From NCBI RefSeq assembly GCF_964355755.1, contig NC_092673.1, positions 19,279,648 to 19,343,647 on the forward strand: a stretch of 64,000 bases of DNA, written 5' to 3'. Position numbers and translations under genes: made by a program. Source of the DNA: Antedon mediterranea. Lineage: Eukaryota > Animalia > Echinodermata. Below, piece by piece: positions 12,886 to 62,604 of this stretch (position 1 is its first letter; each line of letters begins with the position of its first letter). Below the pieces are notes generated by a model. It did no database searches. It was given only the letters and a program-made list of their open reading frames with translations, and was not told where the DNA came from.

Positions 12886-12993
12886 CTGATTTGAAATACA
12901 AAGAGCAAACCATTAGATGCCAGAAACTTAAAATAAAAAATTAACTTAATGAATAAAGTTGTTAAATTTAATATAATAGACCTAAAGTTATAC

Positions 12994-26631: not shown

Positions 26632-27131
26632 TCATCTTTGCAACAACTTATTAACCTCATCTATTTTGTCTTCACTCAGCAACCCTCGAGGAACAAAATC
26701 AAATATCAGACTCCAGCTGTCTGCATACTTCTTAAGGACAGGGAAGTTGTGTCTTGCATCAAGTCTTCTGATAGCGGAATCCTTAAGATTTTTTCCAAGA
26801 TTAACAATCTTCATTGTGTGTGCAGGAAATGATACTACCTCACGTTTCTTGACGTCTTTGAAAGCAGGAAGCTTTTCTGTGACTGTTGACTCGAAGCCAA
26901 ATTGTTCAGTTACTTTTATTGCATCAAACAGTACAGACAGATTTGTTTGACTCAATCGCCCATTCGCAGATAAAAGAGTTAACAAGTCAATTGTACTGGT
27001 AACTTTTTTCAACTCTTCAATGTTGCTTACTATTCCTATGAATAGGACTTGTAGCCTGTTAAGGAGTCCACGTTCATCAAACCATTGTGCAAAGTCTGTA
27101 ATCAAGTGTTTAAAATCATCCTCTGAGAAAT
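26632..27131 (-). CDS. Last coding exon: tandem death-effector-domain-like helical region
   Basis: Acceptor tatag|at. DFKHLITDFAQW...IDLLTLLSANGRLSQTNLSVL and HTMKIVNLGKNL...WSLIFDFVPRGLLSEDKI resemble DED patterns (F..LL..l...L / LF..Le..g.l...nl..L). Judged by eye only. Confidence 0.62.
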
Positions 27132-30100
27132 CTATATGGTTGAAGAAAAGCAAGTTTTCAATATTATGAAATATATATATTTAGCATAATTATCATAATT
27201 GTTTACAATCATAATCAATGTTTGAATATGATTATGAATATGAATTATTAAAACACCATAATAATTTTCTAGTAATAAAATAAATTGATAACAAAAATGA
27301 TGATGCTACATAAGAAAATATGTAATGTCCAAAAGATGTACAGACAAGGTAGTTTAATTTGAAAATGTGATCATAAACATTGTTGACCATAGGTGATTAC
27401 ATGAGACCTATGGTAGAAAATTATTGTGATCAAATTTTCAAATAAACTGTGGAAAATCAACTATCTTCTGTACTTTTTTAAAATAATGTAGAAAAATTAG
27501 CTTTAGAAAAAAGTACTACAGTAAATAAATACTCACTCCCATTATTTTATGTGTAATAATTAGTATTATTCTTTTTATTATATAATAATATAATCCCAGA
27601 AATTCATCATTTAAACATCACTATAATATATGATTATATTGTTTAAAGGTTTGCATAGAGTGCAAATAAACACTAGTAAAGTCAGGTTAGGGGTATATAC
27701 CATGTGTTTCTATAAAGGAAGTAAAGTTGTAAGGTTTGCATAGAGTGCAAATAAACACTAGTAAAGTCAGGGTAGGGGTATATACCATGTGTTTCTATAA
27801 AGGAAGTAAAGTTGTAAGGTTTGCATAGAGTGCAAATAAACACTAGTAAAGTCAGGGTAGGGGTATATACCATGTGTTTCTATAAAGGAAGTAAAGTTGT
27901 AAGGTTTTCATAGAGTGCAAATAAACACTAGTAAAGTCAGGGTAGGGGTATATATCATGTGTTTCTATAAAGGAAGTAAAGTTGTAAGGTTTTCATAGAG
28001 TGCAAATAAACACTATTAAAGTCAGGGTAGGGGTATATACCATGTGTTTCTATTAAGGAAGTAAAGTTGTAAGGTTTGCATAGAGTGCAAATAAACACTA
28101 GTAAAGTCAGGGTAGGGGTATATACCATGTGTTTCTATAAAGGAAGTAAAGTTGTAAGGTTTGCATAGAGTGCAAATAAACACTAGTAAAGTCAGGGTAG
28201 GGGTATATACCATGTGTTTCTATAAAAGAAGGAAAGTTGTAAGGTTTGCATAGAGTGCAAATAAACACTAGTAAAGTCAGGGTAGGGGTATATACCATGT
28301 GTTTCTATAAAGGAAGTAAAGTTGTAAGGTTTTCATAGAGTGCAAATAAACACTAGTAAAGTCAGGTTAGGAGTATATACCATGTGTTTCTATAAAGGAA
28401 GTAAAGTTGTAAGGTTTTCATAGAGTGCAAATAAACACTAGTAAAGTCAGGGTAGGGGTATATACCATGTGTTTCTATTAAGGAAGTAAAGTTGTAAGGT
28501 TTGCATAGAGTGCAAATAAACACTAGTAAAGTCAGGATAGGGGTATATACCATGTGTTTCTATAAAGGAAGTAAAGTTGTAAGGTTTGCATAGAGTGCAA
28601 ATAAACACTAGTAAAGTCAGGTTAGGAGTATATACCATGTGTTTCTATTAAGGAAGTAAAGTTGTAAGGTTTGCATAGAGTGCAAATAAACACTAGTAAA
28701 GTCAGAGTAGGGGTATATACCATGTGTTTCTATAAAGGAAGTAAAGTTGTAAGGTTTGCATAGAGTGCAAATAAACACTAGTAAAGTCAGGTTAGGGGTA
28801 TATACCATGTGTTTCTATTAAGGAAGTAAAGTTGTAAGGTTTGCATAGAGTGCAAATAAACACTAGTAAAGTCAGGGTAGGGGTATATACCATGTGTTTC
28901 TATAAAGGAAGTAAAGTTGTAAGGTTTTCATAGAGTGCAAATAAACACTAGTAAAGTCAGGTTAGGAGTATATACCATGTGTTTCTATAAAGGAAGTAAA
29001 GTTGTAAGGTTTTCATAGAGTGCAAAAAAACACTAGTAAAGTCAGGGTAGGGGTATATACCATGTGTTTCTATTAAGGAAGTAAAGTTGTAAGGTTTGCA
29101 TAGAGTGCAAATAAACACTAGTAAAGTCAGGATAGGGGTATATACCATGTGTTTCTATAAAGGAAGTAAAGTTGTAAGGTTTGCATAGAGTGCAAATAAA
29201 CACTAGTAAAGTCAGGTTAGGAGTATATACCATGTGTTTCTATTAAGGAAGTAAAGTTGTAAGGTTTGCATAGAGTGCAAATAAACACTAGTAAAGTCAG
29301 AGTAGGGGTATATACCATGTGTTTCTATAAAGGAAGTAAAGTTGTAAGGTTTGCATAGAGTGCAAATAAACACTAGTAAAGTCAGGTTAGGGGTATATAC
29401 CATGTGTTTCTATTAAGGAAGTAAAGTTGTAAGGTTTGCATAGAGTGCAAATAAACACTAGTAAAGTCAGGGTAGGGGTATATACCATGTGTTTCTATAA
29501 AGGAAGTAAAGTTGTAAGGTTTACATAGAGTGCAAATAAACACTAGTAAAGTCAGGGTAGGGGTATATACCATGTGTTTCTATTAAGGAAGTAAAGTTGT
29601 AAGGTTTGCATAGAGTGCAAATAAACACTAGTAAAGTCAGGGTAGGGGTATATACCATGTGTTTCTATTAAGGAAGTAAAGTTGTAAGGTTTTCATAGAG
29701 TGCAAATAAACACTAGTAAAGTCAGGGTAGGGGTATATACCATGTGTTTCTATAAAGGAAGTAAAGTTGTAAGGTTTGCATAGAGTGCAAATAAACACTA
29801 GTAAAGTCAGGTTAGGGGTATATACCATGTGTTTCTATTAAGGAAGTAAAGTTGTAAGGTTTGCATAGAGTGCAAATAAACACTAGTAAAGTCAGGGTAG
29901 GGGTATATACCATGTGTTTCTATTAAGGAAGTAAAGTTGTAAGGTTTGCATAGAGTGCAAATAAACACTAGTAAAGTCAGGGTAGGGGTATATACCATGT
30001 GTTTCTATAAAGGAAGTAAAGTTGTAAGGTTTACATAGAGTGCAAATAAACACTAGTAAAGTCAGGGTAGGGGTATATACCATGTGTTTCTATTAAGGAA

Positions 30101-33100
30101 GTAAAGTTGTAAGGTTTGCATAGAGTGCAAATAAACACTAGTAAAGTCAGGATAGGGGTATATACCATGTGTTTCTATTAAGGAAGTAAAGTTGTAAGGT
30201 TTGCATAGAGTGCAAATAAACACTAGTAAAGTCAGGGTAGGGGTATATACCATGTGTTTCTATAAAGGAAGTAAAGTTGTAAGGTTTGCATAGAGTGCAA
30301 ATAAACACTAGTAAAGTCAGGGTAGGGGTATATACCATGTGTTTCTATAAAGGAAGTAAAGTTGTAAGGTTTGCATAGAGTGCAAATAAACACTAGTAAA
30401 GTCAGGGTAGGGGTATATATCATGTGTTTCTATAAAGGAAATAAAGTTGTAAGGTTTGCATAGAGTGCAAATAAACACTAGTAAAGTCAGGGTAGGGGTA
30501 TATACCATGTGTTTCTATAAAGGAAGTAAAGTTGTAAGGTTTGCATAGAGTGCAAATAAACACTAGTAAAGTCAGGGTAGGGGTATATACCATGTGTTTC
30601 TATAAAGGAAGTAAAGTTGTAAGGTTTGCATAGAGTGCAAATAAACACTAGTAAAGTCAGGGTAGGGGTATATACCATGTGTTTCCATAAAGGAAGTAAA
30701 GTTGTAAGGTTTGCATAGAGTGCAAATAAACACTAGTAAAGTCAGGGTAGGGGTATATACCATGTGTTTCTATAAAGGAAGTAAAGTTGTAAGGTTTGCA
30801 TAGAGTGCAAATAAACACTAGTAAAGTCAGGGTAGGGGTATATACCATGTGTTTCTATAAAGGAAGTAAAGTTGTAAGGTTTGCATAGAGTGCAAATAAA
30901 CACTAGTAAAGTCAGGGTAGGGGTATATACCATGTGTTTCCATAAAGGAAGTAAAGTTGTAAGGTTTGCATAGAGTGCAAATAAACACTAGTAAATTCAG
31001 GGTAGGGGTATATACCATGTGTTTCTATAAAGGAAGTAAAGTTGTAAGGTTTTCATAGAGTGCAAATAAACACTAGTAAAGTCAGGGTAGGGGTATATAC
31101 CATGTGTTTCTATAAAGGAAGTAAAGTTGTAAGGTTTGCATAGAGTGCAAATCAACACTAGTAAAGTCAGGGTAGGGGTATATACCATGTGTTTCTATTA
31201 AGGAAGTAAAGTTGTAAGGTTTGCATAGAGTGCAAATAAACACTAGTAAAGTCAGGGTAGGGGTATATACCATGTGTTTCTATAAAGGAAGTAAAGTTGT
31301 AAGGTTTTCATAGAGTGCAAATAAACACTAGTAAAGTCAGGGTAGGGGTATATACCATGTGTTTCTATAAAAGAAGTAAAGTTGTAAGGTTTGCATAGAG
31401 TGCAAATAAACACTAGTAAAGTCAGGGTAGGGGTATATACCATGTGTTTCTATAAAGGAAGTAAAGTTGTAAGGTTTGCATAGAGTGCAAATAAACACTA
31501 GTAAAGTCAGGGTAGGGGTATATACCATGTGTTTCTATTAAGGAAGTAAAGTTGTAAGGTTTGCATAGAGTGCAAATAAACACTAGTAAAGTCAGGGTAG
31601 GGGTATATACCATGTGTTTCTATAAAGGAAGTAAAGTTGTAAGGTTTACATAGAGTGCAAATAAACACTAGTAAAGTCAGGGTAGGGGTATATACCATGT
31701 GTTTCTATAAAGGAAGTAAAGTTGTAAGGTTTGCATAGAGTGCAAATAAACACTAGTAAAGTCAGGTTAGGAGTATATACCATGTGTTTCTATAAAGGAA
31801 GTAAAGTTGTAAGGTTTGCATAGAGTGCAAATAAACACTAGTAAAGTCAGGTTAGGAGTATATACCATGTGTTTCTATAAAGGAAGTAAAGTTGTAAGGT
31901 TTGCATAGAGTGCAAATAAACACTAGTAAAGTCAGGGTAGGGGTATATACCATGTGTTTCTATTAAGGAAGTAAAGTTGTAAGGTTTTCATAGAGTGCAA
32001 ATAAACACTAGTAAAGTCAGGGTAGGGGTATATACCATGTGTTTCTATAAAGGAAGTAAAGTTGTAAGGTTTGCATAGAGTGCAAATAAACACTAGTAAA
32101 GTCAGGGTAGGGGTATATACCATGTGTTTCTATAAAGGAAGTAAAGTTGTAAGGTTTGCATAGAGTGCAAATAAACACTAGTAAAGTCAGGGTAGGGGTA
32201 TATACCATGTGTTTCTATAAAGGAAGTAAAGTTGTAAGGTTTGCATAGAGTGCAAATAAACACTAGTAAAGTCAGGGTAGGGGTATATACCATGTGTTTC
32301 TATATAGGAAGTAAAGTTGTAAGGTGTGCAGAGTGCAAATAAACACTAGTAAAGTCAGGTTACCAGTACACCATGTGTTTCTAAAAAGGAAGTAAAGTTG
32401 TAAGGTTTTCATAGAGTGCAAATAAACACTAGTAAAGTCAGGTTACCAGTACACCATGTGTTTCTATAAACGTCGTGAGGTGGTTTCCCGATTAATAGTA
32501 CGATCAAAACGGTACTGGGTATGATCAACTAGCGTTCGTGTTCCCAACTAATCATCCATTCATAGAAGTACTGATGAAGATATCAATCTGTGGCGACAAT
32601 AGAATGGACCCGAGACCTGTCGTAAGGTAGTTTCCCGATTAATCGTACGATCAAACGGTACTGTCGTGAGGTGGTTTCCCGATTAATCGTACGATCAAAA
32701 CGGTACTGGGTATGATCAACTAGCGTTTGTGTTCCCACCTAATCATCCATTCATAGAAGTACTGATGAAGATATCAATCTGTGGCGACAATAGAATGGAC
32801 CCGAGACCTGGCTATCTTCGACTTTTAAATAATAGAAAGTTTAGAAAAATGTTTTTGTTAAACTAGAAATGTACGTTGTATGTATATAGAAAAATGGTTT
32901 TAGTTTTCAAAATTACATTGTATAAGTTGCGATGTGAAAAACTGTTATTTGATCGTTAGTTGTCGTGTACATAAAGCAAAAATATAAATATAATAAAATA
33001 AAATAAAAATCGTTAGTAAAACTTTTAAAAAGAGTAAAGATATAAGGAAGAAAAGCAAAGAGATCATGGAGCGGCTGTACCAGAATATACAACACTAAGT

Positions 33101-36100
33101 ATTGTAAAGTTAAAAATTTAGGCGATTCTTGTCAAAGGTCAAGCGCCTTCAGCCTGCCACGTTTCGATATTCAATATTGAACTTGACCTGACGTGGTTCC
33201 ACAATATCTTTATATGAAAATGGTAGAATTGATAGGAAATAATAATTAATTCAAAATTTACCTAAAAATGGTTTTGAACTGAATCGATGGATGTCTTGTC
33301 GTTGTATGGTTTTGGTTTGGTTTAAAAGTATGTTCGATAAAGTGCGTGAGCGTATTAGAATGAAATGCTAGCGTATACAATGTGCGCGATGTCAAGTTGT
33401 GTACTGTGTGATACATGTAAGATTATAAGTGTATCGTACATTGTAGTAGAGCGAAAATAACATAGGTATAAAGGTAGGATATAAATAAGTAGTATAGGAT
33501 GTATAGAAAAAGGAATGGGTTGTTAGTTACAGGAAAGATTTTGAATGTCGTGAGGTGGTTTCCCGATTAATCGTACGATCAAAACGGTACTGGGTATGAT
33601 CAGGGTAGGGGTATATACCATGTGTTTTCATAAAGGAAGTAAAGTTGTAAGGTTGAGAGACTTTCTCATATCATAATCTTTATCTACTAGTAACTTACCT
33701 TCTCTTGGTTGAGATTGGTGACTGGATGATGTGCTTTCATTTTGGTCCTTATCACTACTGCCTAAAAATGATTAAAATGAGATGTACATTTACTAATTAG
33801 AAAAATGTTTATAGTACACAATGCCATTGTACAGTCTGTGGTGGAATATTGACAGTTACACTGCATACATTGTTTAACTATAGTCTCACATGGAATATTG
33901 ACAGTTCCACTGCATACATTGTTTAACTATAGTCTCACATGGATGCAATACAAAGATATAGGTTGCAATACACAGCTAATATGAGATCTATCCAATCCGT
34001 CACTTGTCATTGGTCAAATTACTTATGTTGTGTCTACGTTCTTGCATTGTAGTGATAATCCAAACCTTATCCACATATTATAGTCTTTTCATAGAAAAAA
34101 CTATTGTAATACTGTACTTAAAACTATTAATACACAAACAAGTTTGTGACAGATAAAATTATGTATTACTTATTCAAATATAATAATATGTTTTATAAAT
34201 ATCTGGCCTATTTAAACATTGAACCTCCAACATTAACATTTTTTTTAAACTTTAACTATCTTGACATTATTAAATAAATTATAGATTGCTAGTACAACTG
34301 GTAGGAGGGATGAAGATATCACAGCTAATAGCATCATGTTGTAACAATGTATAGATTATCAATAATGATTCTGATAGTACTACTACTGGTAAGAGGAATG
34401 AAGATATCACAGCTAATAACAGCATGTTGTAACAATGTATAGATTATCCATAATGATTCTGATAGTACTACTACTGGTAAGAGGAATGAAGATATCACAG
34501 CTAATAGCAGCATGTTGTAACAATGTATAGATTATCAATAATGATTCCGATAGTACTACTACTGGTAAGAGGAATGAAGATATCACAGCTAATAGCAGCA
34601 TGTTGTAACAATGTATAGATTATCAATAATGATTCTGATAGTACTACTACTGGTAAGAGGAATGAAGATATCACAGCTAATAGCATCATGTTGTAACAAT
34701 GTATAGATTATCAATAATGATTCTGATAGTACTACTACTGGTAAGAGGAATGAAGATATCACAGCTAATAGCAGCATGTTGTAACAATGTATAGATTATC
34801 AATAATGATTCTGAGAGTACTACTACTGGTAAGAGAATGAAGATATCACAGCTAATAGCAGCATGTTGTAACAATGTATAGATTATCAATAATGATTATG
34901 TTGTACTACTACTGATAAGAGGAATGAAGATATCACAGCTAATAGTAGCATGTTGTAACAATGTATAGATTATCAATAATGATTCTGATAGTACTACTAC
35001 TGGTAAGAGGAATGAAGATATCACAGCTAATAGCAGCATGTTGTAACAATGTATAGATTATCAATAATGATTCTGATAGTACTATTACTGGTAAAGAGGA
35101 ATGAAGATATCACAGCTAATAGCAGCATGTTGTAACAATGTATAGATTATCAATAATGATTCTGATAGTACTACTACTGGTAAGAGGAATGAAGATACCA
35201 CAGCTAATAGCAGCATGTTGTAACAATGTATAGATTATCAATAATGATTCTGTTAGTACTACTACTGGTAAGAGAACTGAAGGTATCACAGCTAATAGAA
35301 GCAGCATGTTGTAACAATGTATAGATTATGAATAATGATTCTGATAGTACTACTACTGGTAAGAGGAATGAAGATATCACAGCTAATAGCTGCATGTTGT
35401 AACAATGTATAGATTATCAATAATGATTCTGATAGTACTACTACTGGTAAGAGGAATGAAGATATCACAGCTAATAGCAGCATGTTGTAACAATGTATAG
35501 ATTATCAATAATGATTCTGATAGTACTACTACTGGTAAGAGGAATGAAGATATCACAGCTAATAGCTGCATGTTGTAACAATGTATAGATTATCAATAAT
35601 GATTCATTCTGATAGTACTACTACTGGTAAGAGGAATGAAGATATCACAGCTAATAGCAGCATGTTGTAACAATGTATAGATTATCAATAATGATTCTGA
35701 TAGTACTACTTCTGGTAAGAGGAATGAAGATATAACAGCTAATAGCAGCATGTTGTAACAATGTATAGATTATCAATAATCATTCTGATAGTACTACTAC
35801 TGGTAAGAGGAATGAAGATATCACAGCTAATAGCAGCATGTTGTAACAATGTATAGATTATCAATAATCATTCTGATAGTACTACTACTGGTAAGAGGAA
35901 TGAAGATATAACAGCTAATAGCAGCATGTTGTAACAATGTATAGATTATCAGTAATGATTCTGCTAGTAATTACATTACATAATAATCATTTGTTTTTGG
36001 GTCAAATAAATAAATGAAAATAAACTTGTATATATATTACTCTTACCTCCAAATAAACACTTGTAACGTAAAACATCCATCGTAACAGACTTGCCAGTTT

Positions 36101-39100
36101 TGGTGCATGTCAACTTCTCGTCATGGAAATTTTCAAGATTTTGAATGTGCTTCTTTTCTGATGTATCACTACATACACCACACAGTATGCATCTCTCAAA
36201 ATGAATCCCTCTTCTACCACCATCTTTAGTAGGTTCAAATGACTTTTGAATTGTTAACAAAACCTAAAGGTACAAATTGAATGGCAAACTGCAATTAACA
36301 CTATATGACAATAAAAACAAACAATATAGCAAACGTTGTGTTCACTAAACATTTACAATACAATAAAACCAATAACACAATAACCAAAAAATAGAAGGGG
36401 GAGGGGAAGGGGGATTTGGGGTTGTTCCCAGAAGAAAAGGGTATAGTACTTCTGAGACTGAGTATTTGAACCATAGGCCCCTACCCCCCACTTCCACTTA
36501 ATGGTCGGAGATGTGGCAAGGGAATTTTGTTTAAGGACACCCCTAGATGGGCGGAAAAATTCATGATATGGCAACTTTAGTTTGCCAGAAATGACACTCC
36601 ACTGAGCGCACTAGCAAACAGCAAAACCCATCTCATTCTTCCCACACGGGGCGGTAGACACATGCAACTAACAATATATAAAATTGTTTGCGTTCAATAA
36701 GAACGTCAGGGCAAGTCCCCGCTAAAGGCACTTCCGATACGATCATTATAAACGCTAATAAGGTCCCCAAAAAATTGTTTGTTTGTTTGTTTTCCCTGGA
36801 AAATTGTTAGAGGGGTGGGTAGAAAAAATGTGTTTTTGTTTGTTTTTGTTACATATCTTTCGCTATCTTATAATAGTTTCACATGCAAGTTATTCTCTCG
36901 TATACACATGCGTAACAGAGCGTAAGCAACGTAATTGAATTTAAGAGATCGTCTCAATTATTAGACATATTCCCCACAATGTGGTACCCTCCCCCCCCCA
37001 CCCCACCCCTACGATATATGAAATGATAACAAACCTCTTTACATGCGTCAGAAGAGGGTTCATCATTACTTGTTCTATTACAAGCAGGAGTTCTTTTAAT
37101 AGTCACCTAAAAAAGAAGAAAAGTGATGTTTTGATATTTGAATTGAGTTTATGCTTAGAATAAATTATGACTTATTTCACAACAAATTATATGATACAGC
37201 ACCTTTAACAAGAACTTTCTTTCATCCTCCGTAGTCACAAATTTGACAAGAGATAAGGTCACATGATGATCTTGGTCAAAGTAAAGTTCAGCATGGTTAT
37301 ACAAGAGTATTGGGTCAACTCCTTTCTTTTGAAATTTGTTGAGGAAATCAATAATCATATATGGAAACAATACATCTGGCAGATATCCCTTAAAGTCGTA
37401 ATAGACACTGATAGATTGTGAATCATCAGGCACTGGTTTCACTTCACTTGATGTCTTAAAAGCAAGGCGTAGTGGCACAAAGAATGATCGCTTTCCAACA
37501 GATTCCTGAAATTGTTGATTTGTAAAATGGCATTCAGATTTCTTTTAGAAAATTAAATATCATATCCTGTACATGTTAAAAACATCTTTCAGTAGATAGT
37601 TTAATCAAAATATGTCCGAACCCTACAATAATTTTAAAATTTAAAGTAAAATTTCACCAATTATGTATCATACCAAATTTTTTTTCTATTTCATAATCTT
37701 GCATACAAAACATGTTAGAAAAGATAACTGAACAAAACCTACTGTAGATGTACTTGCCACATCTTGGCTGCTGGTTGTCTTCCTCTCACAAATAAAACCT
37801 AATTGAATCATCAGTTCTACAAGAAACTCAAAATTCTTTCCGTCGTCAACTTTACGCTTTTTCCATAATCTTCGCAACAACTTTTCTTCCAGTATGCCCT
37901 TGTCAAGCTTATCAAACGCATCGATATACGTGGCCGGCTAAAAAACACCACCAATTAGCCATACTTAGTATTTTGTGTTTATTTAAAGTTATCAAACAAT
38001 TAGAGTCTAAAGGGATGCACATGTATAAAGACTTGTAGATGCAATTACATCTAATATACAATATACCCCTCAATGTTAAATTAAGGAAACTGTCAGACAT
38101 TGCTTTTGATACTACAGCACCTATAGGAATTCAAATGTACCTCAATTATTTCCTAAAAAAACACTGCATTAACATTTTCATGAGACTACTTACTGGAAAT
38201 TCTGGTGGAATGACAGTTACAAAAGCAGTAACAATTTCAACCAGCTGCATCGGATCTAACACCGCTTTATCTTTCAATAATTTGTTGTCAGGCCTGTAAA
38301 CAATTTCACCAAGATCGTACAAAAAGTTTAGAAGAAAGGATTGTTTTTTTTCATCTGCAATACCATTCTTACTTGCCAGCATTTTGAGCTAAAGAAAAAA
38401 TTGTTTACTATTCAGATACAACTAAAATATCAAAAATATGAAACCAAAGGTAGGTATACATTTACAACATTAGTTTTGTCCTTTACAGCCTGAAATGTTT
38501 TGAAATTTACTTGATAACATGTACTGCATAACTTTGGATCTGAAGGAAAACGTCTCTCTCAGGATGGGGGAAACGTAACTGCAATTTTTCTCACAGAATG
38601 TAATTGTCAGTGTTGCAATGCAAATATTCCATAAAAAATACTAGGCCGATGTAATTGCTCTGATTTTTTTCAGATAGGAAACCATAACAGCATGGATAGG
38701 ATTATATATTTTTATATTATATTACATTAACATTATTTTACCATTCAGATTTAGAGCAGTGAAGATGAAAATATGACAAAAATATTATCAATATTATTAT
38801 ATAGTACTGTAGTTATATATAATAGTGGGTAGAGTCTTTTGTTTATACTTTTTTAAATACTACTATTTCCAACATATTTCTATTCTGAAAACAAAACACT
38901 GAGGAATGATGCCAATTAAATTTACCTCTTCAACTGGACACAAAGAAAAATGTTTTTTTCTCCTTAGATCATGTAGATCACATCGAAAACGCATCCACTT
39001 TAAAGGAACTTCTTTCTCTAAAGCAGTCATAAGGTCATCAATAACTTTTTTAAGATCACTAAAGCTCTTATCTGTTGTTTCTTGGCTGTTTTCAACGGCA

Positions 39101-51100: not shown

Positions 51101-54100
51101 AAGGAATCACAATAAAGTTTATAAATACTGACAACAGACATTATGTGAAATTGTTTGTTTTTTTTGTCAATACAAACAACAACAATTGCTGCTAAATATT
51201 GTGGTAAATAATCATAATTATCATTATTAATAAATGAGTAGAACAAAATAGAATGGTTTACCACAGCATATCTATAGAATGTTAGCCTATTACACCAGCA
51301 AATCCCTGTACATTACCTTATTTTGCAATGTTACTGGTGTATAATACTGACAGACGTTATGTGAAATTGGGGGGTTTTTTTGTCAACCCAAACCATAGCA
51401 AGAATTACTGCTAAATAATGTGGTCAATAATCCTAATTGACATGATTGATAAATGAGAACAAAATAGAATATCTTACCATGGATCAGATCTAAAGATTGT
51501 TAGCCTATTACTATTACAGAAGCATTTTTTTGTAAGGTAGGGAGGGAGCAGGTTATTAATTAATAATTATTTTTTTAATTAAAATCAGATTCTATTAATT
51601 TTTTTGACGTAAGCATTTTTATTTGTTATTTTATTATTAATCAATGTAGTTGTCCCATTTTATTTCATCTTTACAATTAATTAGACCATTGTCAATCATT
51701 GTTATCTTTACAGCTACATATGACCAATTTATATTTGTTTTACGGTCAAAAATATGTAAACAAAATTATACTGATTCACCTGAATATAAAAAAATGTCCA
51801 ATTGCATTGCTCGAACAATTTTAGATTTTGGAAACTACTATAAACTAAACATTATTTACATTTCTCTTCCATTTGTGGCAAAATGCTTGCAAAAAAAAAA
51901 ATGCTGGAAAAAGATTATTCTTTTTATTATTCTTTATTAAAAACAAACCAATTGGCAGCAAATCTGCTGAATTGCATGGTAAGGAACAATATACATTCAA
52001 AAGACAAGAAAAGTATAGTCATTATAAAACAAAATAATCGCAATTACAAAATATATTTAAATGTAAACATAAAGTTTAAAAAAATAGTCAAATTGCAAGG
52101 ATATAGTATATACATTATAACTTAATTACAGTATAAAAATATAATCTTAAATTTAAGTTGCAGTATTTACATTGGTTTCTTAATTAAAGTCGACTTCAGA
52201 CAATTAAATAATTACAATTAAACATTTACAAAAACATCAAATACAAAATTAAATGAGAATTAAGAATAAATTGAGTCAAATTCAAGAAATTTCTACTAGG
52301 CCAATATGTCAAATTAATTAATATCTGGTTACATTATACATTTATTTTCTTTTATTATTTAATCAATACTGTTGAGGCAGCGAGTGAGAAACGGGATTGC
52401 ACTGTTTCCATATCTATTTGTCTTATTTTTGGGGACCTGGTATGTATTACTTTTCCGTAAGGCCATATTATGCGTACTCATATTTCTCGGAAACCACTCA
52501 GCATATCTATACGCATTAGCACATTTCTTTGCAAATTCAATGCAAAGTTGGTAACGTCTCTCAGTCATGGTATGGAGTCCCAACTGCTTCAGTGATTCCG
52601 TGTATGATACGTAATCCGCACCCACGATAATGCGGCATGCTCTCTTTTGGATTCGCTCCAATTGGTAGGTCTGTTCCTTGGTTATACTGCTATGCCAAAC
52701 CGGGACAGCGTACTCACTTATTGGGCGAACATAACACGTATACACGGAGGTCAAATCTTCAGTCGGGACACCAAACCGTTTGAGACGTGATAGCATGTAT
52801 AGTCGTCGACTACTTTTACTAATAATATCATTAAGGTGGGACTGCCAGCCAAGATTGGACTGGATAGTCAAGCCCAGAAGCCTGGTCTCAGACACCACCT
52901 CGAGCTCCACCCCAGCGATTTGAAGGTGAGGAGGGTTAGGCGGTTCCTTCATAAAACAAACCTGCATAGCCTTGCACTTACTGGGGTTGAGCTCGAGACG
53001 GTTGTCCGTTGCCCAAGCATCCAGATCCTGAACATCCACTCCAATCTGGCTGGGTTGATTTGCGGGACGAACTTCTACAAGGCTGAGGTCATCAACATAC
53101 TTAAAACTTTCAGCCAGAGACTCCTCAGAGGCATTATTGATAACTACCATGAAGATTATGGGGCCTAGCTTGGTGCCTTGTGGGACGCCACAGGAAAGCG
53201 TCTCCCACCGTGACAAGGCAGAGTGGTATTGCACTCGTTGGCGACGAGATGTAAGGAAGTTTGTTATCCATGGCAGTAACTCGCTTCTGACACCAAGCTC
53301 GAAGAGTCTCTGAATAGCTAAAGTATGATCGATACAGTCAAACGCCTTGGAGAAGTCCGTCACAATAAGGGTGCCAACATTCTTACCCTTGTCTGTACCT
53401 TTAAAAAACAAATCAAGTATTTCAATAAGACAATGGGCAGTGGATGATCCTTTTATGCCACCATATTGGTTACGATCAATTTCTTTACCTATATCTTCCA
53501 TAACCCAGTTGGAAACAAATCCCTCGCATACCTTCGCAAGAATCGATGTCAAAGATATTGGTCTTAATTTAGAGATTGAGGCAGGGGTAGTCTTTGGGAT
53601 AGGGGAAATTGTGGCATCCTTCCACATTTTAGGAACAATTCCCTCTTTTAGAGATGAGTTAAATAAGTCACAAACGGGAACGCTGAACTCGCACGCGAAC
53701 TCTTTAAGAAGTCTCCCAGGGAGGTCGTCGGGTCCAGCCGCTTTCTTACTTTTCAAATTTTTCAAGTTATTGTACATTTCCCACACTTCAATCCTAGGTG
53801 GAGCATTTGCAGGTAGAAAGGTAGGTAATTGTTTTAAGTTGATTGGGGGTCTACCTTGGGTGACAGAAGCAAATTCATTACTTATAGCTTCTGATCTGTG
53901 TACGTAAACTATGCAATCTAAAAAATCGAACCATGCTAAAATTCCCTGGCCACTCAAATCAAGATCTTGCAAATGATATCAATAACCACTTTGCATCTGT
54001 GTGCCGACAGCTTCCCCCAGTTGATGTAAATGCTCTTCCTGCATATTTGCCTTCACCTGAACCCCCGCCAAAAATTTTTCCTGGACAAGTCAGACGATTG

Positions 54101-57100
54101 ATTAATAAACTAAAGTCAAAGAAGTCTAGTCACCCTGATGACTTGCCAATTAAACTTATAAAAGAATTCGCCTTTGAAATTGCTACTCCACTTGCCCATA
54201 TTTTTAATTGTTGTCTTAATGAAGGTGTATTTCCCGAGTTATGGAAGTTAGCAACAGCCATTCCTGTTCCAAAAGTTCCTAATGTGACATCATTTCAAGA
54301 CCTCAGGCCAATTTCACTTACCCCCATCTTTGCCAAGTTGTTTGAGTCATTCCTTACTGATTGGGTGACTAGTGACATTCATCAACATTTAGATATTAAA
54401 CAATTTGGTTGCCGTAAAGGCTCATCTACTAGCCATTATCTTGTGGACATGATTAAGTCTGTAATTAGTGATATTGAAAAAGGTGATTCTTTTGTGGATA
54501 TTTGTGCCGTTGATTTTACGAAGGCCTTCGACCGAATTGACCATACGGTCATTGTTAGAAAGCTTGTCGACATCGGAGTGAGAACATCTATTATTCCCAC
54601 CATCTGTAGCTTTCTGACGGATCGTAAAATAAATACTAAACTTAGTTCATCCTTTTCCCCTTATGCCAACATCACATGTGGGATTCCACAGGGTACAAAG
54701 CTTGGGCCAATTTTGTTTCTTATATTAGTCAATGATATCTCTATGGAAGGCTGCAGATGGTGGAAGTATGTTGATGATCTCACTCTTGGTGACACTGTTA
54801 AACATGGTAATGCTCCTAAACTTCAATCTTGTCTTGATGACCTTACTGAGTGGTGTGATACAAATCACATGGTCCCTAAACCCTCTAAGTGTCATATCAT
54901 GAGAGTTAATTTTTTGAAAAGAAATATTCCCCCTCCTAATTATTACCTTAGCGGTACAACACTTAATGTTGTTTCGTATATGAAGCTCCTTGGACTTATA
55001 ATCCAGGATGACTTGAAATGGGATAATAATGTCAGTGACATGGTAAAAAGAGCATCCAAAAGGTTGTATACGTTATATATCCTTAGAAGGGCCAATGTAC
55101 CAGTTCATGATATGATATCCGTTTATGTTTGTTATATTCGCCCAATCTTAGAATACGCCTGCCCTGTGTGGCATGGAAGCATCAATAAGGCCCAAATATC
55201 GACCATTGAAAGAGTGCAAAAGAGAGTTTTACGTATTATTCTGGGTCCCGCTTTCCTTACGTATGATTCTTGAGCTTACTGATATGACCACTCTCGCATC
55301 CAGACGAGAGACGTTGATTCAAAAATTTGGAGAAAGGCTCTTGAAATCGGAATTGTACAGAACTATTTTGCCCGACTACCGCATTATTAATAGAGAGCTT
55401 AGATCAACCACGGTAGATAAACCCCTAATTAATATACCTGTTTGCAGAACTAACCGTCTTAAGACTTCGCCTGCCCTTACCATAAGTAGAATCCTTAATT
55501 CAAACAGTACCTGATCACGCTGAAGATGGCTATGTTATAAATATTTACATATATTGGCCTATGCATTTGTATATAAATTTTGGAATCTTTTTAACATAAC
55601 ATAATTTTATTTTTTTAACTGATTTTTTCAAATTTTTTAATGTTTTGTATAAATTTTTGTATTTTTTTAAATGTTTCTGTTTCCATATATTTATATATAT
55701 ATTTTTGTAAATCAACAATTTCAGCCTTCGGGCTGCATGTTTTTTATTGTATAAACCTGAATAAATAAATAAATAAAAAAATAAAAAAAAATCTCTTTAA
55801 AAGGCCATATTCAAACTGTAATTAGCTGGATATACTGACAGAAGTATTTTTTTGGAAGGTAAGGGAGGGAGCAAGTTATTAACAATTAATAATTCTTTTT
55901 TTATTAAAATCAGATTCTATTAATTTTGTTAACAATAACACAAACATTTTTGTTTGCTATTTTATTATTTGTCAACATACTGTAGTTGTCCAATTTTATT
56001 TCATATTTATAATTAATTAGACCATTTTCAATTGTTGTTATCTTTACAGCTACATATGACCAGGGAGTTGTCATTTTACAACTCCCTGATATGACCAATA
56101 TATATTTATTTTATGGTAAAAATATTTAAACAAAATTATAGTGATTCACCTGAATATAAAAAATTACAAGTAGATTGTTTTTGTTCATTAAGAAAAAAGA
56201 TATATGTTATTTGATGAATAACTGTATACTTTAAATCAGTTATCATAAATCATATATAACTGTTTAGTTATTATTTTAATTTGATTTCTTTTAATAAAAT
56301 TTGATTTTTGTTAATGTGCTTACTTTTTTCTCTCATTGAATGGTTTACTTCAGCATATCTATATAATGTTAGCTTATTACACTAGCAAATCCCTGTACAT
56401 TACCTTATTTTGCAATGCTACTGGTGCCCCATGCTGAATGAGACACGTCACTATTTCTGAGGTAGGGTATAGACTCCTCAGATGTACATGTAATGGAGTG
56501 TCACCATCCTGGAAAGGAATCAAAATCATGAAGTTTATAAATACTGACAACAGACCTTATGTGAAATTGGGGTTTTTTCACAATACAAACAACAACAATT
56601 AATGCTAAATAAAGTGGTAAATAATCATAATTATCATTATTAATAAATGAGTAGAACAAAATAGAATGGTTTACCACATCATATCTATAGAATGTTAGCC
56701 TACTACACTAGCAAATCCCTGTACATTACCTTCTTTTGCAATGCTACTGGTGCCCCATGCTGAATGAGACAAGTCACTATTTCTAAGGTAGGTGCAGTAT
56801 ATCGACCCCGCAGATATGAATGTAATAGAGTTTCACCATACTGGAAAGGAATCATAATGAAGTTTATAAATACTGACAACAGACATTATGTGAAATTGTT
56901 TGTTTTTTGTCAATACAAACAACAACAATTGCTGCTAAATATTGTGGTAAATAATCATAATTATCATTATTAATAAATGAGTAGAACAAAATAGAATGGT
57001 TTACCACAGCATATCTATAGAATGTTAGCCTATTACACTAGCAAATCCCTGTACATTACCTTATTTTGCAATGTTACTGGTGTATAATACTGACAGACGT

Positions 57101-60100
57101 TATGTGAAATTGGGTTTTTTTGTCAACCCAAACCATAGCAAGAATTACTGCTAAATAATGTAGTCAATAATCCTAATTGACATGATTGATAAATGAGATA
57201 AAAATAGAATATCTTACCATGGATCAGATCTAGAGATTGTTAGCCTATTACTATTACAGAAGCATTTTTTTGAAAGGTAAGGGAGGGAGCAGGTAATTAA
57301 TTAATAATTATTTTTTATTAAAATCAGATTCTATTAATTTTTTTGACATAACCATTTTTTATTTGTTATTTTATTATTAATCAATGTAGTTGTCCCATTT
57401 TATTTCATCTTTACAATTAATTAGACCATTGTCAATCATTGTTATCTTTACAGCTACATATGACCAATTTATATTTGTTTTACAGTCAAAAATATGTAAA
57501 CAAAATTATACTGATTCACCTGAATATAAAAAAATTACAAGTAGATTTTTTTGTTTGTTAAGAAAATTAAAGATATATGTTATTTGATAGGCAACTGTAA
57601 ACTTTAAATCAGTTATCATAAATCATATAAACTATTTAGTTATTATTTTTATTTGGTTTGTTATAATCAAGTTTGATTTTTGTTAGTATGTTTATTTTTT
57701 TCTCTCATTTAATGGTTTACCGCAGCATATCTACAGAATGTTAGCCTATTACACTAGCAAATCCCTGTACATTACCTTATTTTGCAATGCTACTGGTGCC
57801 CCATGCTGTACGAGACACGTCACTATATCTTACCATGGATCAGATCTAGTGATTGTTAGCCTATTTACTTAATGTAAGTTATTAGTCATTAAATCTACTT
57901 ACTGTACAATATCAAACACAAAATTTGAACATTAATAAAATACATATTTCATAAAATTGTACAAACAAATGTTCAGCATTCAAAATATGAGGCCAATAAG
58001 AAGTTTAATGAATTTATATATAAATTTAGGTAATAGGAAATTTCAGTAAATAAAGTGCAACTTCTAGAATTTTTACTCAATGGTAGAAAAATTGGTACAT
58101 ACTTTCAGTACTGATTTTTAACACCCAATGAAACCATTATCATAATTAAGCTATTAAGATATTAGATATTAACGATTAAAAAAAATTTAGGTTAAACCAT
58201 TTTCCTCAATGAAAATAATATCATATCATGAAGCCTGATACCATCCCATCATCAAATGTACCAAGACAGGAATTTGGTGAACAATACCATGCACTAAACA
58301 AAATTAAGGTAATTCTCAGGATGACAATTATATTTGACTACATAAATTCCATCATATCTGTATTTATTTGCCTTGTGTACAGTGCGACTTAGACAATATT
58401 CAGTTATTTACCGAAGTTTATGTATTCGAGAATCATCTGTGGGCACTTAATTACCAGTATATCAAATTTTAACTGGCAACTTTAATAGAATCATTTTTTC
58501 CAAAAAGTCATAAGATAAGATATGGCACTGTTTGAAAAGAATAATTTCATATTAAATTTCTTTTTGAAATTGCATTGCTCAAACATTTTTACTAAACTAA
58601 ACATTATTTACATTTCTCTTCCTTTTGTGCAAAATGTTTGTTTGGAAAAGGATCTCTTTAAGGCCATATTCATACTGTATGTGATAAGACTGTCAGAAGT
58701 ATTTTATTGTAAAGTAAGTAAAGGGCAGGAGCAGGTTATTAACAATTAATAATCCTTTTTTATTGAAATCAGATTCTATTTTTAACATAAACATTTTTTA
58801 ATTTGTTATTTTATTAATAGTCAATGTAGCATGTCCCATTTTATTTCGTATTTACAATTAATTAGACCATTGTCAATCGTTATCTTAAAGTACATACAGT
58901 AATAATGAGCAATTTATATTTGTTTTACGGTCATAAAAATGTTAACAACATTGTAGGTTTCTAATATGAAGATTTTTTTGTTCATTAGAAATAAAAGATT
59001 TATGTTATTTGATATGTAACTACACATAATCAGTTCATAAATCAAATGAACTATTTAGTTTTTTATTTGGTTTGTTGTAATCAAGTCTTCACTTTTTCTC
59101 TAATTGTAACATTTTTCACAAAATCATGTCTGGTATGCTTCATTTAGATTCTGCTAAGCTTTGATTTATTTATATTATTATTTTTAGCCTAATGTTGTTA
59201 ATCAGTGCATGCAGGTTATACCTCCATCATCAGCGTGTATTTATATTATTATTTTTAGCCTAATGTGGTTAATCAGTACATGCAGGTTATACCTCCATCA
59301 TCAGTGTGTATTTATATTATTATTTTTAGCCTAATGTGGTTAATCAGTACATGCAGGTTATACCCCCATCATGAGTGTGTATTTATATTATTATTTTTAG
59401 CCTAATGTGGTTAATCAGTACATGCAGGTTATACCCCCATCATCAGTGTGTATTTATATTATTATTTTTAGCCTAATGTTGTTAATCAGTACATGCAGGT
59501 TATACCTCCATCATCAGTGTGTATTTATATTATTATTTTTAGCCTAATGTTGTTAATCAGTACATGCAGGTTATACCTCCATCATCAGTGTGTATTTTAT
59601 TATTATTTTTAGCCTAATGTGGTTAATCAGTACATGCATGTTATACCTCCATCATCAGTGTGTATTTATATTATTATTTTTAGCCTAATGTGGTTAATCA
59701 GTGCATGCAGGTTATACCCCAATCATCAGTGTGTATTTATATTATTATTTTTAGCCTAATGTGGTTAATCAGTACATGCAGGTTATACCTCCATCATCAG
59801 AGTGTAAATATATTATATTATTTTTAGCCTAATGTGGTTAACACGTTCACTGCCACGGCGTATTTATACGTCAAAAATTGCGTGTCGCTACTTGCCAAGA
59901 CGTAATACTACGTCAAAATCGTAGCACTTTTGTATTGTATGTAGAATCGCTGGCAGTGGTGATTGGAACAGGAATTATCGCATGGCAGTTTATGAATGAT
60001 GTACGTAAACGATAATCTAAAAATAAATGTCATATGTTTGTTTGTGTTTATTCCCTCATGCATTGAATATGGTTGATACGATGGCGCCCTCACACTCAAT

Positions 60101-62604
60101 ATAATCATCTCAAACATGTCATAAATTGCGCTAATAGTAAATAAAAATAATAAAGGATGAAATGATTCAGTGTGGTTTACTGTTTTTATCTCTCGATGAT
60201 AGGTTTGACCGATTTTAGCGCGGAAAATCCCCGACGTATATTTACGTTCCTGGCAAAGTCAATAAAATTGTTGGACCATTGCCAGTGACGTATTTATACG
60301 TCTCAACGGTTTTTCCCGCCATCGTATTTTGAATGACATCATGATAGTCTGTGACCAGATGTTACACTTTCAAACTGTAATTTAATATGTAAACGGGACT
60401 TGGCACTGGGACAGAAATTACGGAAAATGCCTTGGCAGTCAATGTGTTAATCAGTGCATGCAGGTTATACCCCCATCATCAGTGTGTATTTATATTATTA
60501 TTTTTAGCCTAATGTGGTTAATCAGTACATGCAGGTTATACCTCCATCATCAGTGTGTATTTATATTATTATTTTTAGCCTAATGTGGTTAATCAGTGCA
60601 TGCAGGTTATACCTCCATCATCAGTGTGTATTTATATTATTATTTTTAGCCTAATGTGGTTAATCAGTACATGCAGGTTATAACTCCATCATCAGTGTGT
60701 ATTTATATTATTATTTTTAGCCTAATGTGGTTAATCAGTGCATGCAGGTTATACCTCCATCATCAGTGTGTATTTATATTATTATTTTTAGCCTAATGTT
60801 GTTAATCAGTACATGCAGGTTATACCTCCATCATCAGTGTGTATTTATATTATTATTTTTAGCCTAATGTGGTTAATCAGTACATGCAGGTTATACCTCC
60901 ATCATCAGTGTGTATTTATATTATTATTTTTAGCCTAATGTGGTTAATCAGTGCATGCAGGTTATACCTCCATCATCAGTGTGTATTTATATTATTATTT
61001 TTAGCCTAATGTTGTTAATCAGTACATGCAGGTTATACCCCCATCATCAGTGTGTATTTATATTATTATTTAGTCTAATGTGGTTAATCAGTGCATGCAG
61101 GTTATACCTCCATCATCAGTGTGTATTTATATTATTATTTTTAGCCTAATGTCGTTAATCAGTACATGCAGTTTACCCCATCATCAGTGTGTATTTATAT
61201 CAGTATTTTTAGCTTAATGTGGTTAATCAGTACATGCAGTTTATACCTCTATCATCAGTGTGTATTTATATTATTATTTTTAGCCTAATGTTGTTAATCA
61301 GTACATGCAGGTTATACCCCTATCATCAGTGTGTATTTATATTATTATTTTTAGCCTAATGTGGTTTAATCAGTACATGCAGGTTATACCTCCATCATTA
61401 GTGTGTATTTATATTATTATTTTTAGCCTAATATGGTTAATCAGTACATGCAGGTTATACCCCCATCATCAGTGTGTGTTTATATTATTATTTTTTAGCC
61501 TAATGTGGTTAATCAGTGCATGCAGGTTATACCCCCATCATCAGTGTGTATTTATATTATTATTTTTAGCCTAATGTGGTTAATCAGTACATGCAGGTTA
61601 TATCCCCATCATCAGTGTGTATTTATATTATTATTTTTAGCCTAATGTGGTTAATCAGTGCATGCAGGTTATACCCCCATCATCAGTGTGTATTTATATT
61701 ATTATTTTTAGCCTAATGTGGTTAATCAGTGCATGCAGGTTATACCCCCATCATCAGTGTGTATTTATATTATTATTTTTAGCCTAATGTGGTTAATCAG
61801 TACATGCAGGTTATCCCCATCATCAGTGTGTATTTATATTATTATTTTTAGCCTAATGTTGTTAATCAGTACATGCAGGTTATCCCCATCATCAGTGTGT
61901 ATTTATATTATTATTTTTAGCCTAATGTTGTTAATCAGTACATGCAGGTTATACCCCCATCATCAGTGTGTATTTATATTATTATTTTTAGCCTAATGTT
62001 GTTAATCAGTACATGCAGGTTATCCCCATCATCAGTGTGTATTTATATTATTATTTTTAGCCTAATGTTGTTAATCAGTGCATGCAGGTCATACCAACAT
62101 CATTAGTGTGATATTGCAAAATAATTGTAATTCATTATATAAAAAAATGTTATAATAACTAATAAAGAAAATTACAATCTCTATAATTTTAAACTTTAAT
62201 TAAATTTCTTCTTTGATAATATTATAAAAATAATGTACATCTTGTTTTAAATACCTTATTGATAGATTTCACAAGATCTGGTTGCGTCTTACAGATTTGT
62301 TTAATTGTTTGCAAATCACTCCCGTACCACAAAGCTTCTTCTAATTTGTTCCTGTTAAAATGTAAGAAATAATGAATTATTACACTATTTTATGAAAATG
62401 ATGATTGATGGAAATAATCAATATCATCATTATATTTGATGAGAATGAGCCCTTTAATTGTAATATTTATGATTTCATAATCTTTTAAGAAAGTTTTAAA
62501 GTATTGCTAACTATTCAAACATTTTAATTTGTTTTTAACAGTTTACATATTGAAGCTGGTTATTTTTGTTGGATTTGAAATAAAAAACAAACGTACCTTT
62601 CCAT
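26632..62604 (-). CDS. Multi-exon ankyrin-repeat / ROC GTPase / COR / DED-like protein (ROCO family), ~1,240 aa
   Basis: Hand-spliced GT-AG exons with consistent phases: 62597-62604, 62255-62351, ANK exons (56730-56840, 56404-56508, 50985-51095, 50654-50761, 50323-50430, 49997-50101, 49667-49774, 48123-48227), 45174-45258, 42689-42781, 42164-42323, 41782-41867, 41384-41448, 41049-41091, 40325-40482, 39778-39867, 39411-39590, 38926-39177, 38194-38388, 37743-37937, 37203-37505, 37035-37106, 36047-36263, 33699-33761, 26632-27131. They total 3,723 nt in one open frame. Confidence 0.88.
27645..32470. repeat. 85-bp intronic tandem repeat (~56 copies)
   Basis: Unit gtcagggtaggggtatataccatgtgtttctataaaggaagtaaagttgtaaggtttgcatagagtgcaaataaacactagtaaa. 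One further partial unit at 33601-33655. Confidence 0.98.
32472..33601. mobile_element. Unclassified ~1.1-kb insertion with ~148-bp internal direct repeats
   Basis: gtcgtgaggtggtttcccgattaa...cgagacctg at 32472-32619 and 32663-32810, with partial copies at 32619-32662 and 33547-33601. The 85-bp satellite resumes straight after. Confidence 0.5.
34285..35968. repeat. 88-bp intronic tandem repeat (~19 copies)
   Basis: Unit tactactactggtaagaggaatgaagatatcacagctaatagcagcatgttgtaacaatgtatagattatcaataatgattctgatag-like, 88-bp period. Confidence 0.96.
36047..39177 (-). CDS. COR-domain exons of the ROCO gene
   Basis: EVPLKWMRF, LNFLYDLGEIVY, AVLDPMQLVEIVTAFV, GILEEKLLRRLW, LVELMIQLGFICE, FFVPLRL and LPDVLFP are COR-type motifs. 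A distal CILCGVC...H...C cluster follows. Confidence 0.85.
39411..42323 (-). CDS. ROC GTPase exons of the ROCO gene
   Basis: G1 GQEGVGKT (exon 42164-42323), G2 TDGI (41782-41867), G3 IWDNGGQ..Y...H (40325-40482), ALYIVVFDLS (39778-39867), G4 ILIVGTHKG (39411-39590). Confidence 0.9.
47795..47902 (-). pseudogene. Ankyrin pseudo-exon with acceptor AG->TG
   Basis: The + strand reads tccaggaaag at 47901 where sister cassettes read (tc)ctggaaag. The exon itself is open: DGDTPLHSYLRRVCTATLEIVTCLIQHGAPVALQNE. Confidence 0.75.
47795..56840 (-). CDS. Array of single-ankyrin-repeat phase-0 exons (8 intact, 1 with a broken acceptor)
   Basis: Exons of 105/108/111 nt encode xGxT(P/L)LHxYLxxxx(x)(P/A)T(L/S)EIVTCLIQHGAPVALQNK, each with a ctttccag acceptor and GTAA donor. 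Cassette period is 326-331 bp. Confidence 0.92.
51916..53893 (-). mobile_element. 5'-truncated LINE (CR1/L2-group-like) RT fragment with 3' UTR
   Basis: ORF 52359-~53893 has KAAGPDDLP, RPISLT, QYG, DFSKAFD, GVPQGTKLGP and KYVDD. The 3' end has the hairpin aattcagcagatttgctgc and an aataa-rich tail. Confidence 0.93.
53894..55790 (+). mobile_element. Second, different 5'-truncated LINE (CR1/L2-group-like) RT fragment, frameshifted near the C-terminus
   Basis: ORF 53933-55273 has RPISLT, QFG, DFTKAFD, GIPQGTKLGP and KYVDD, continuing in another frame to 55514. The 3' end has the hairpin tcagccttcgggctgc and an (aata)n tail. Confidence 0.93.
59175..62110. repeat. 71-bp intronic tandem repeat (~32 copies), interrupted by a MITE
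   Basis: Unit ttttagcctaatgtggttaatcagtacatgcaggttatacctccatcatcagtgtgtatttatattattat; cctccatca recurs at 59221 and 59292. Confidence 0.96.
59842..60446. mobile_element. piggyBac-type non-autonomous element (605 bp)
   Basis: TTAA duplicated at 59838-59841 and 60447-60450. TIRs cacgttcactgcca / tggcagtcaatgtg. Subterminal palindromes such as gacgtatttatacgtc. Confidence 0.9.

Follow-up and report, generated by a model that had tools for sequence, protein, structure and literature searches.

What does a locus encode in which ankyrin repeats, a ROC-COR module and a death fold appear to follow one another in a single chain of exons? We encountered this question in a stretch of 64,000 nucleotides from the crinoid Antedon mediterranea (contig NC_092673.1, positions 19,279,648 to 19,343,647 of the forward strand), referred to as the window in this text, within which all positions are counted. 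An earlier note on this DNA had proposed a 27-exon gene for an NLR-like receptor with an ankyrin sensor, a GTPase switch and a DED-like effector. Our analysis supports its proposal of a kinase-less ROCO protein with a variable repeat region and a predicted death-fold C-terminus. We lean towards reading the product as an intracellular, likely immune sensor, in which an ankyrin array and a ROC-COR switch would act through a tandem DED that belongs to a module shared among crinoid proteins.

The gene, which lies on the minus strand as do all its exons, was rebuilt independently by a script test of the sequence. The exon number and both ends came out as before (27 exons from the ATG at 62604 to the TGA at 26632), with GT-AG at 52 of 52 splice sites. 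The predicted coding sequence comprises 3801 nt (1266 aa) and its sole stop is the terminal one; a candidate poly(A) signal (AATAAA, 26586–26591, minus strand) is located about 40 nt 3' of it. The splice chain is deduced from the genomic sequence and from paralogue proteins. A paralogue protein spans 24 of the 26 exon junctions, and junction 12|13 is also spanned, by P0001 with a gap of four residues. For the ankyrin-to-ankyrin junctions this support is generic and does not tell which copies are joined. The parts are arranged as an N-cap (exons 1–2), eight ankyrin exons (3–10), a C-cap (11), a linker (12), ROC (13–20), COR (20–25), a serine-rich linker (26) and the 165-residue exon 27. Exon 1 (62597–62604) contributes the start codon (ME-), and the resulting MER|NKLEEAL is also the annotated start of the Antedon protein P0015, to which exon 2 (62255–62351), the ankyrin N-cap, is 76% identical. 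The lack of a kinase and of an LRR domain, as claimed before, was borne out: neither was found in the window, where a tblastn search with all comparison proteins, kinase- and LRR-bearing ones included, matched only exons and a spare ankyrin unit.

The family assignment comes from the central part of the protein. Over residues 352–1265, the model shares 69% identity with P0001, a protein that scores above the Pfam cut-offs for Roc (55 bits) and COR-A (47.2 bits). Single exons of the model give weaker signals, with E-values of 0.079 and 0.009 for Roc (the latter from exon 17 alone) and, for COR-A, an E-value of 2.5e-7 from exon 21 alone (31.1 bits, cut-off 35.3). A profile of the paralogues matches bacterial Roco (E 1e-20) and the ROC domain of LRRK2. 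After the pre-ROC linker in exon 12 (42689–42781; 87% identical to P0001, P0012 and P0016), ROC begins in exon 13 (42164–42323) with the G1 P-loop (42193–42216). The G2 threonine region (41834–41848), which was aligned to the switch I of C. tepidum-type Roco, is part of exon 14 (41782–41867; 100% identical to P0018), and G3 (40349–40366) is part of exon 17 (40325–40482). G1, G2 and G3 are intact and can be aligned with bacterial Roco structures; an acidic, D/N-rich insert in exons 15 (41384–41448) and 16 (40971–41091) separates G2 from G3. Exon 18 (39778–39867) and exon 19 (39411–39590), which contains G4 (39447–39461), are followed by exons 20–25 with the end of ROC and COR (38926–39177, 38194–38388, 37743–37937, 37203–37505, 37035–37106 and 36047–36263), whose best paralogues are 86–98% identical per exon. 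By this ROC-COR homology, the locus is assigned to the ROCO family, not to the NLRs. NACHT had no match on the 17 model-exon stretches scanned, the only trace being weak P-loop AAA rows for exon 13, and NACHT-bearing proteins had no tblastn match in the window beyond the model exons. Pfam rows for Fer4, RsgA and AAA on single exons were dismissed as chance or P-loop cross-matches.

In the ankyrin array, one repeat corresponds to one phase-0 exon within a tandem unit of about 330 bp, and the units have been amplified in nested blocks. Repeats 1 to 8 are encoded by exons 3 (56730–56840), 4 (56404–56508), 5 (50985–51095), 6 (50654–50761), 7 (50323–50430), 8 (49997–50101), 9 (49667–49774) and 10 (48123–48227), and the C-cap by exon 11 (45174–45258), which has a phase-1 donor and is 46% identical to P0015. 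Three of the four ankyrin exons scanned, out of eight, passed the Pfam Ank cut-off (exons 5, 6 and 8 with E-values of 4e-5, 2e-5 and 5e-6), and exon 4 stayed slightly under it (E 8e-4). The lengths of all eight exons are multiples of three and their phases are 0-0 throughout, so that exon skipping would preserve the frame.

The copies differ from each other mainly in certain codons. Their introns show 3.2–3.5% divergence (about 97% identity). Over codons 1–10, the proportion of nonsynonymous differences (pN) is 0.177 and that of synonymous differences (pS) 0.048, compared with 0.025 and 0.081 in the last 21 codons. The loop following codon 10 is variable in sequence, and its length varies in whole codons. 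As a test of the binding face, we counted variable nucleotide columns at the six repeat positions (2, 3, 5, 10, 13 and 33) for which the ANK-N5C binder library is randomised (PMC4308713). Ten of the 18 columns at these positions vary, as opposed to 9 of 78 in the other aligned codons (p 1.6e-4) and 21 of 210 in the introns (p 1e-5), p-values that are indicative only, since the copies share kinship and their independence is overstated. Two of the six library positions are invariant in this array. In P0169, another Antedon protein, the ankyrin columns that vary most are also those of the loop codons, and variation outside the loop is more scattered. The pattern is compatible with selection that diversifies the binding surface while preserving the framework, and the array may bind ligands.

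For exon 27 (26632–27131, including the stop), which follows the serine-rich linker of exon 26 (33699–33761, phase 1-1), the earlier note had suggested a DED-like fold. The death fold itself is now predicted with good scores, but the idea of a single DED has to be given up: the model is that of a tandem DED of caspase-8 type, with DED1 at about residues 1–89 and DED2 at about 95–165. Comparison with Pfam DED gave an E-value of 0.002, under the cut-off, a single-sequence search of the PDB yielded nothing relevant (SKP2, E 0.76, chance), and the exon-27 profile reached FADD at E 0.009 only. An AlphaFold2 model calculated with 68 sequences had a predicted local distance difference test score (pLDDT) of 95 and a predicted template modelling score (pTM) of 0.88. 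In Foldseek, all 25 rows listed were DEDs of caspase-8, cFLIP or vFLIP (template modelling scores of 0.70–0.76, E 0.0016 or weaker). VIA-align, run on 48,161 chains, ranked the caspase-8 tandem DED first (Z 15.2, root-mean-square deviation 2.6, 154 aligned residues; residues 5–165 of the model on 2–166 of a 183-residue chain), then FLIP structures (Z 11–12); PYD, DD and CARD did not exceed Z 8.2. The ESM Atlas provides a lead only, its recognition being below threshold: PF01335 is present in 51% of the 87 members, mostly Echinodermata, of the top cluster (0.93).

The relatives of the protein, which we counted among annotated crinoid proteins, agree with the lineage-specific family proposed earlier. 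All 26 matches of the ROC-COR search are crinoid (20 from Antedon mediterranea and 6 from Anneissia japonica, some of them isoforms), as are all 11 longer proteins matched by the last exon. None of the compared proteins matches the model over its full length. Exons 14 and 16–19 are up to 93–100% identical to P0018/P0019, exons 20–22 are 86–98% identical to P0022, exon 23 is 93% identical to P0015, and exons 26 and 27 are 90% and 77% identical to P0003 and P0001, respectively. The C-terminal tandem DED of P0018 and P0019 is of another subtype. The N- and C-terminal ends vary throughout the family, with N-terminal ankyrins (P0015, P0034), a tandem DED (P0017), a kinase (P0026) or a death domain (P0033); a tandem-DED-type module is present in 14 of the 26 ROC-COR family matches, and death domains in 5 of 23 scanned. 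From the per-exon patchwork and the differing ends we infer recombination and module swapping within a tandem family. Antedon accounts for three of the 120 proteins listed in the ankyrin-ROC search, which does not establish the present ankyrin-ROCO type as numerous. Many long proteins from ENA records (e.g. P0187, P0192) join ankyrins and a Roc match, a combination that seems widespread outside crinoids. We also noticed P0015 (XP_071947615.1), in which two tandem ROC-COR units of different clades follow two ankyrins and which may be a genuine double ROCO or an artefact of fusion in the gene model, and the Antedon protein P0188, in which ankyrins of this type occur together with a tandem-DED-type module at the C-terminus and Pfam matches neither Roc nor COR.

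The death module of exon 27 is found in other protein classes as well. A phmmer search of 1.84 billion representatives returned 147 relatives, and the 35 of them checked by name are all crinoid. Among the 141 relatives scanned for domains (E 1e-5), there were 23 with NACHT, 13 with Roc/COR, 4 with TIR, 2 with caspase, 1 with a RIG-I helicase and 1 with a Rel domain. After modules with fewer than 120 profile positions had been removed, 200 modules remained, contributed by 159 of the 178 proteins, and we calculated a midpoint-rooted FastTree phylogeny from them. It places the exon-27 module in a 14-member subfamily (support 0.997), which then groups with the modules of two NLRs (0.987); the next clade, with 30 members (0.881), holds a module of an Anneissia caspase-8-like protein in which the SHG and QACQR motifs are present. 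Once its own Antedon subfamily is set aside, the exon-27 module is most closely related to domains at the N-terminus of crinoid NLRs. This apparent common ancestry suggests possible partners rather than demonstrating binding. Two further crinoid proteins, the RIG-I-like helicase P0083 (XP_033103796.1) and the Rel protein P0084 (XP_071955940.1), carry the tandem-DED module at the N-terminus; Pfam at E 1e-5 detected no CARD on P0083.

A sensor built from these parts could work as follows. The variable ankyrin face would bind a ligand, and binding would shift the assembly state of ROC-COR together with its nucleotide, possibly by a dimer/oligomer switching as known for other ROCO proteins, for which a nucleotide-dependent dimerisation cycle has been proposed (PMC4104024). 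The predicted caspase-8-like tandem DEDs would then cluster and recruit crinoid partners with the same module through DED-DED contacts. A caspase-8-like protease or proteins of the NLR, RIG-I or Rel type are the partners in view, and the output might be caspase or Rel activation, leading to cell death or NF-kB signalling.

Several observations weigh against this sensor, and we discuss them together with the alternatives on which they bear. The first concerns the switch: G4 reads THKG, without the aspartate. In TRAFAC GTPases, this aspartate sets guanine specificity, and its change contributes to ATP use by SpoIVA (PMC7952092). It is lost (KG or KA) in all 19 same-clade Antedon domains that cover the motif (20 matches, one without the motif) and retained in 5 of the 6 Anneissia matches as well as in the second ROC clade of Antedon. 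An alternative donor within G4 that would give an aspartate was rejected, as splicing from it would run into a stop within exon 20 and the paralogues also have THKG. Of the G1–G4 and COR reported in the earlier note, G1–G3 and COR therefore stand, but G4 is not a proper motif; with the aspartate missing, the GTPase switch is unproven and GTP specificity less probable. The ROCO assignment is unaffected, as it rests on ROC-COR, in which a nucleotide switch remains plausible. Second, if all 31 alignable ankyrin codons are taken together, 17 of 93 columns vary versus 21 of 210 in the introns (p 0.059, not significant), a p-value that again overstates the independence of the related copies. Third, the caspase-8-like relative is an Anneissia protein, not one from Antedon.

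The shape of the last exon raises the possibility of the opposite output. DED2 stops about 10–17 residues early, without its last helix, and the RxDL motif is absent from the exon-27 protein; the modules of NLRs, Rel and other ROCO proteins have an additional helix-like tail after DED2. The single gene might then encode a regulator or decoy that, like cFLIP and viral FLIPs, uses its shortened tandem DED to cap DED assemblies or to sequester them, and so dampens NLR, RIG-I or caspase-8 signalling. The second rank of FLIP structures in the fold search is compatible with this idea, and the truncation is common to the closest Antedon subfamily and hence looks maintained. However, the top structural match is caspase-8, not FLIP, and several DED contacts are mediated by a hydrophobic patch rather than by RxDL, according to PMC4558505. 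The diversified sensor array fits ligand-triggered action, yet leaves its sign unfixed. We consider a damping role rather unlikely and retain an activating sensor as the preferred reading.

This sensor presupposes that the ankyrins and the ROC belong to one gene, which hinges on junction 11|12. It is the sole junction for which no paralogue or homologue was found among the proteins compared. P0001, P0012 and P0016 carry other N-termini ahead of the exon-12 sequence, and read-through of exon 11 meets a stop after two codons, so that an ankyrin-only product is possible. Exons 1–11 could thus form an ankyrin-only gene of their own, located upstream of a second transcription unit for ROC-COR and the tandem DED (exons 12–27). 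Against this, intron 11 (2.4 kb) is bounded by GT-AG and has phase-compatible ends, it contains no CpG island, and the alternative N-termini of P0001 and P0016 have no tblastn match in it or in the window. The observed/expected ratio of CpG is 0.21–0.55 in the gene regions tested (retroelement inserts excluded) and 0.50 in intron 11, versus 0.97 at 1.5–21.6 kb; such depletion across the gene regions fits one methylated gene body. In addition, P0169 (XP_071964198.1) is a single annotated Antedon protein that combines eight ankyrin repeats of the same subfamily with Roc, COR-A and a tandem DED, and its ankyrin C-cap, the same as here, leads directly into the ROC domain. The same holds for P0015, which shares the start and has two such repeats. 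The ankyrins of P0015 and P0169 precede a different ROC clade, however (about 27–34% identical). Two units seem improbable to us, and exons 1–27 very probably constitute one gene with a single predicted transcript.

Even one gene could serve other purposes than pathogen sensing, for example as a scaffold similar to DAPK1 or MFHAS1 in stress, development or regeneration, with ankyrins that bind a host protein. The order of ankyrins, ROC-COR and death fold is that of DAPK1 without the kinase. Broad non-immune roles have been described for animal ROCO proteins (PMC4104024). However, the expansion within the lineage (20 Antedon matches), the mosaic exons, the binding-face variation and the immune-type partners are marks of conflict genes, unlike conserved scaffolds, and we regard a scaffold as very unlikely in comparison with the proposed immune sensor.

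Remnants of repeat amplification are scattered over the array. A spare full ankyrin unit at 47.9k (47795–47902, minus strand) was rejected as an exon because its acceptor is TG, not AG, and it is likely skipped. Five partly deleted units (at about 57.8k, 57.1k, 51.3k, 48.5k and 45.8k; 45737–57830, minus strand) lie in nested block duplications of 0.3–1.4 kb. Intron 4 harbours a pair of oppositely oriented reverse-transcriptase fragments of non-LTR type (52362–53978 on the minus and 53888–55270 on the plus strand). The six broken units, the pair of retroelement fragments, the nearly identical introns of the ankyrin units and the patchwork similarity to paralogues might also indicate a recent chimaera that arose by unequal crossing-over in the tandem cluster and is unexpressed or decaying, its ankyrin units being a neutral 330-bp minisatellite, but 27 exons without stop or frameshift, frame-preserving lengths in 8 of 8 ankyrin exons, pN below pS in the framework codons and a surplus of replacement changes confined to specific codons make this the least credible explanation.

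An open reading frame of 857 codons (6606–9176, minus strand) has reverse transcriptase and GIY-YIG matches, and we take it to be Penelope-like because of this combination. Another one of 365 codons (12971–14065, minus strand) matches a PHD finger and an OTU-like protease; it is flanked by A/C-rich tracts of 10–31-bp repeats at about 10.9k and 20.4k that seem to be mutually inverted, and all of this may belong to a large DNA transposon. Minisatellites fill intron 26 (27646–32470, 85-bp units), intron 25 (34293–35969, 88-bp units) and intron 2 (59167–62115, 71-bp units), and further long ones are located at 21673–25674 (units of about 100 bp) and 1–1424 (89-bp units).

A far-reaching extension of the sensor reading would be that crinoid innate immunity has been rewired around one private tandem-DED module, which caspase-8-like proteases and TIR adaptors would share with NLRs, RIG-I and Rel. 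In Antedon, ROCO receptors would have been added as a second class, with variable, exon-shuffled ankyrin arrays similar to designed ankyrin repeat proteins (DARPins); their ROC, no longer specific for guanine, would use ATP or any nucleoside triphosphate and converge on STAND proteins from a Ras-like fold. We mention this scenario as a speculation that is unlikely to hold as a whole. If the sensor reading is true, it points to a crinoid-wide tandem-DED network, with the module in N-terminal position on RIG-I and NLRs, and the idea of ROCO receptors becomes testable via a defined death-fold output. A ROC that naturally lacks the G4 aspartate would also help to ask which nucleotide ROC-COR requires, which is relevant to LRRK2 and DAPK1.

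How does the gene compare with known systems? DAPK1 resembles it in combining ankyrins and ROC-COR with a death fold at the C-terminus. The kinase of DAPK is CaM-regulated; it is N-terminal in DAPK1 (PMC4104024) and missing here. Moreover, a tandem DED takes the place of one death domain, an expanded and variable family that of a conserved gene, and the G4 aspartate is lost. In Trichoplax, at least 17 ROCO genes occur, with CARD, death, TPR and LRR domains (PMC4104024). This is likewise a lineage-specific expansion in an animal with death-fold and repeat domains, but DED, ankyrins and an exon-level diversification of repeats are not among the features named for Trichoplax in that source. The predicted fold of exon 27 resembles the tandem DEDs of caspase-8 and cFLIP (PDB 4zbw, 7lvj, 8ybx; Z 14–15) and differs from them in its C-terminal position, its identity of 16% and the absence of the last DED2 helix and of RxDL. 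With NLR/STAND proteins, the gene would share a repeat sensor, an NTP switch and a death-fold output, and crinoid NLRs bear the same module. The parallel drawn in the earlier note is valid as an analogy and not as membership, since the ROC is Ras-like instead of a NACHT or NB-ARC, a STAND ATPase is absent, the domain order is reversed and the repeats are ankyrins, not LRRs. A ROCO protein with NLR-like logic is therefore the likely description.

The closest parallels are found outside animals. In the ROCO proteins of brown algae, one LRR corresponds to one exon and is under diversifying selection, and they are candidate immune receptors (PMC11378527); Ectocarpus keeps spare repeat exons in non-coding DNA (PMC4104024). 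As far as described in these sources, both systems have an expanded ROCO family, the identity of repeat and exon, spare copies and diversification of the binding or concave face. The crinoid gene differs in its ankyrins instead of LRRs, in its predicted C-terminal tandem DED (the algal proteins are simple LRR-ROCOs) and in its animal host. Prokaryotic conflict systems with an AP-GTPase (Roc)-COR core join variable repeats to variable effectors (PMC8195603). The order of variable repeats, Roc-COR and variable C-terminal effector is the same, and in both cases one genome contains multiple copies with different effectors; unlike these systems, ours is an intron-rich metazoan gene with an ankyrin sensor and a DED-class effector. 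Ankyrin-ROCO-tandem-DED genes, crinoid ROCO-DED proteins or a crinoid tandem-DED network were not found in the literature searched, supplements aside, and the source data of PMC8195603 could list such proteins. The logic of sensor, switch and effector is thus already known from brown algae and bacteria, and the crinoid gene is a variant of it. If our reading is correct, it adds an animal case of ROCO proteins as diversified immune receptors, a role hitherto argued mainly for brown algae and bacteria.

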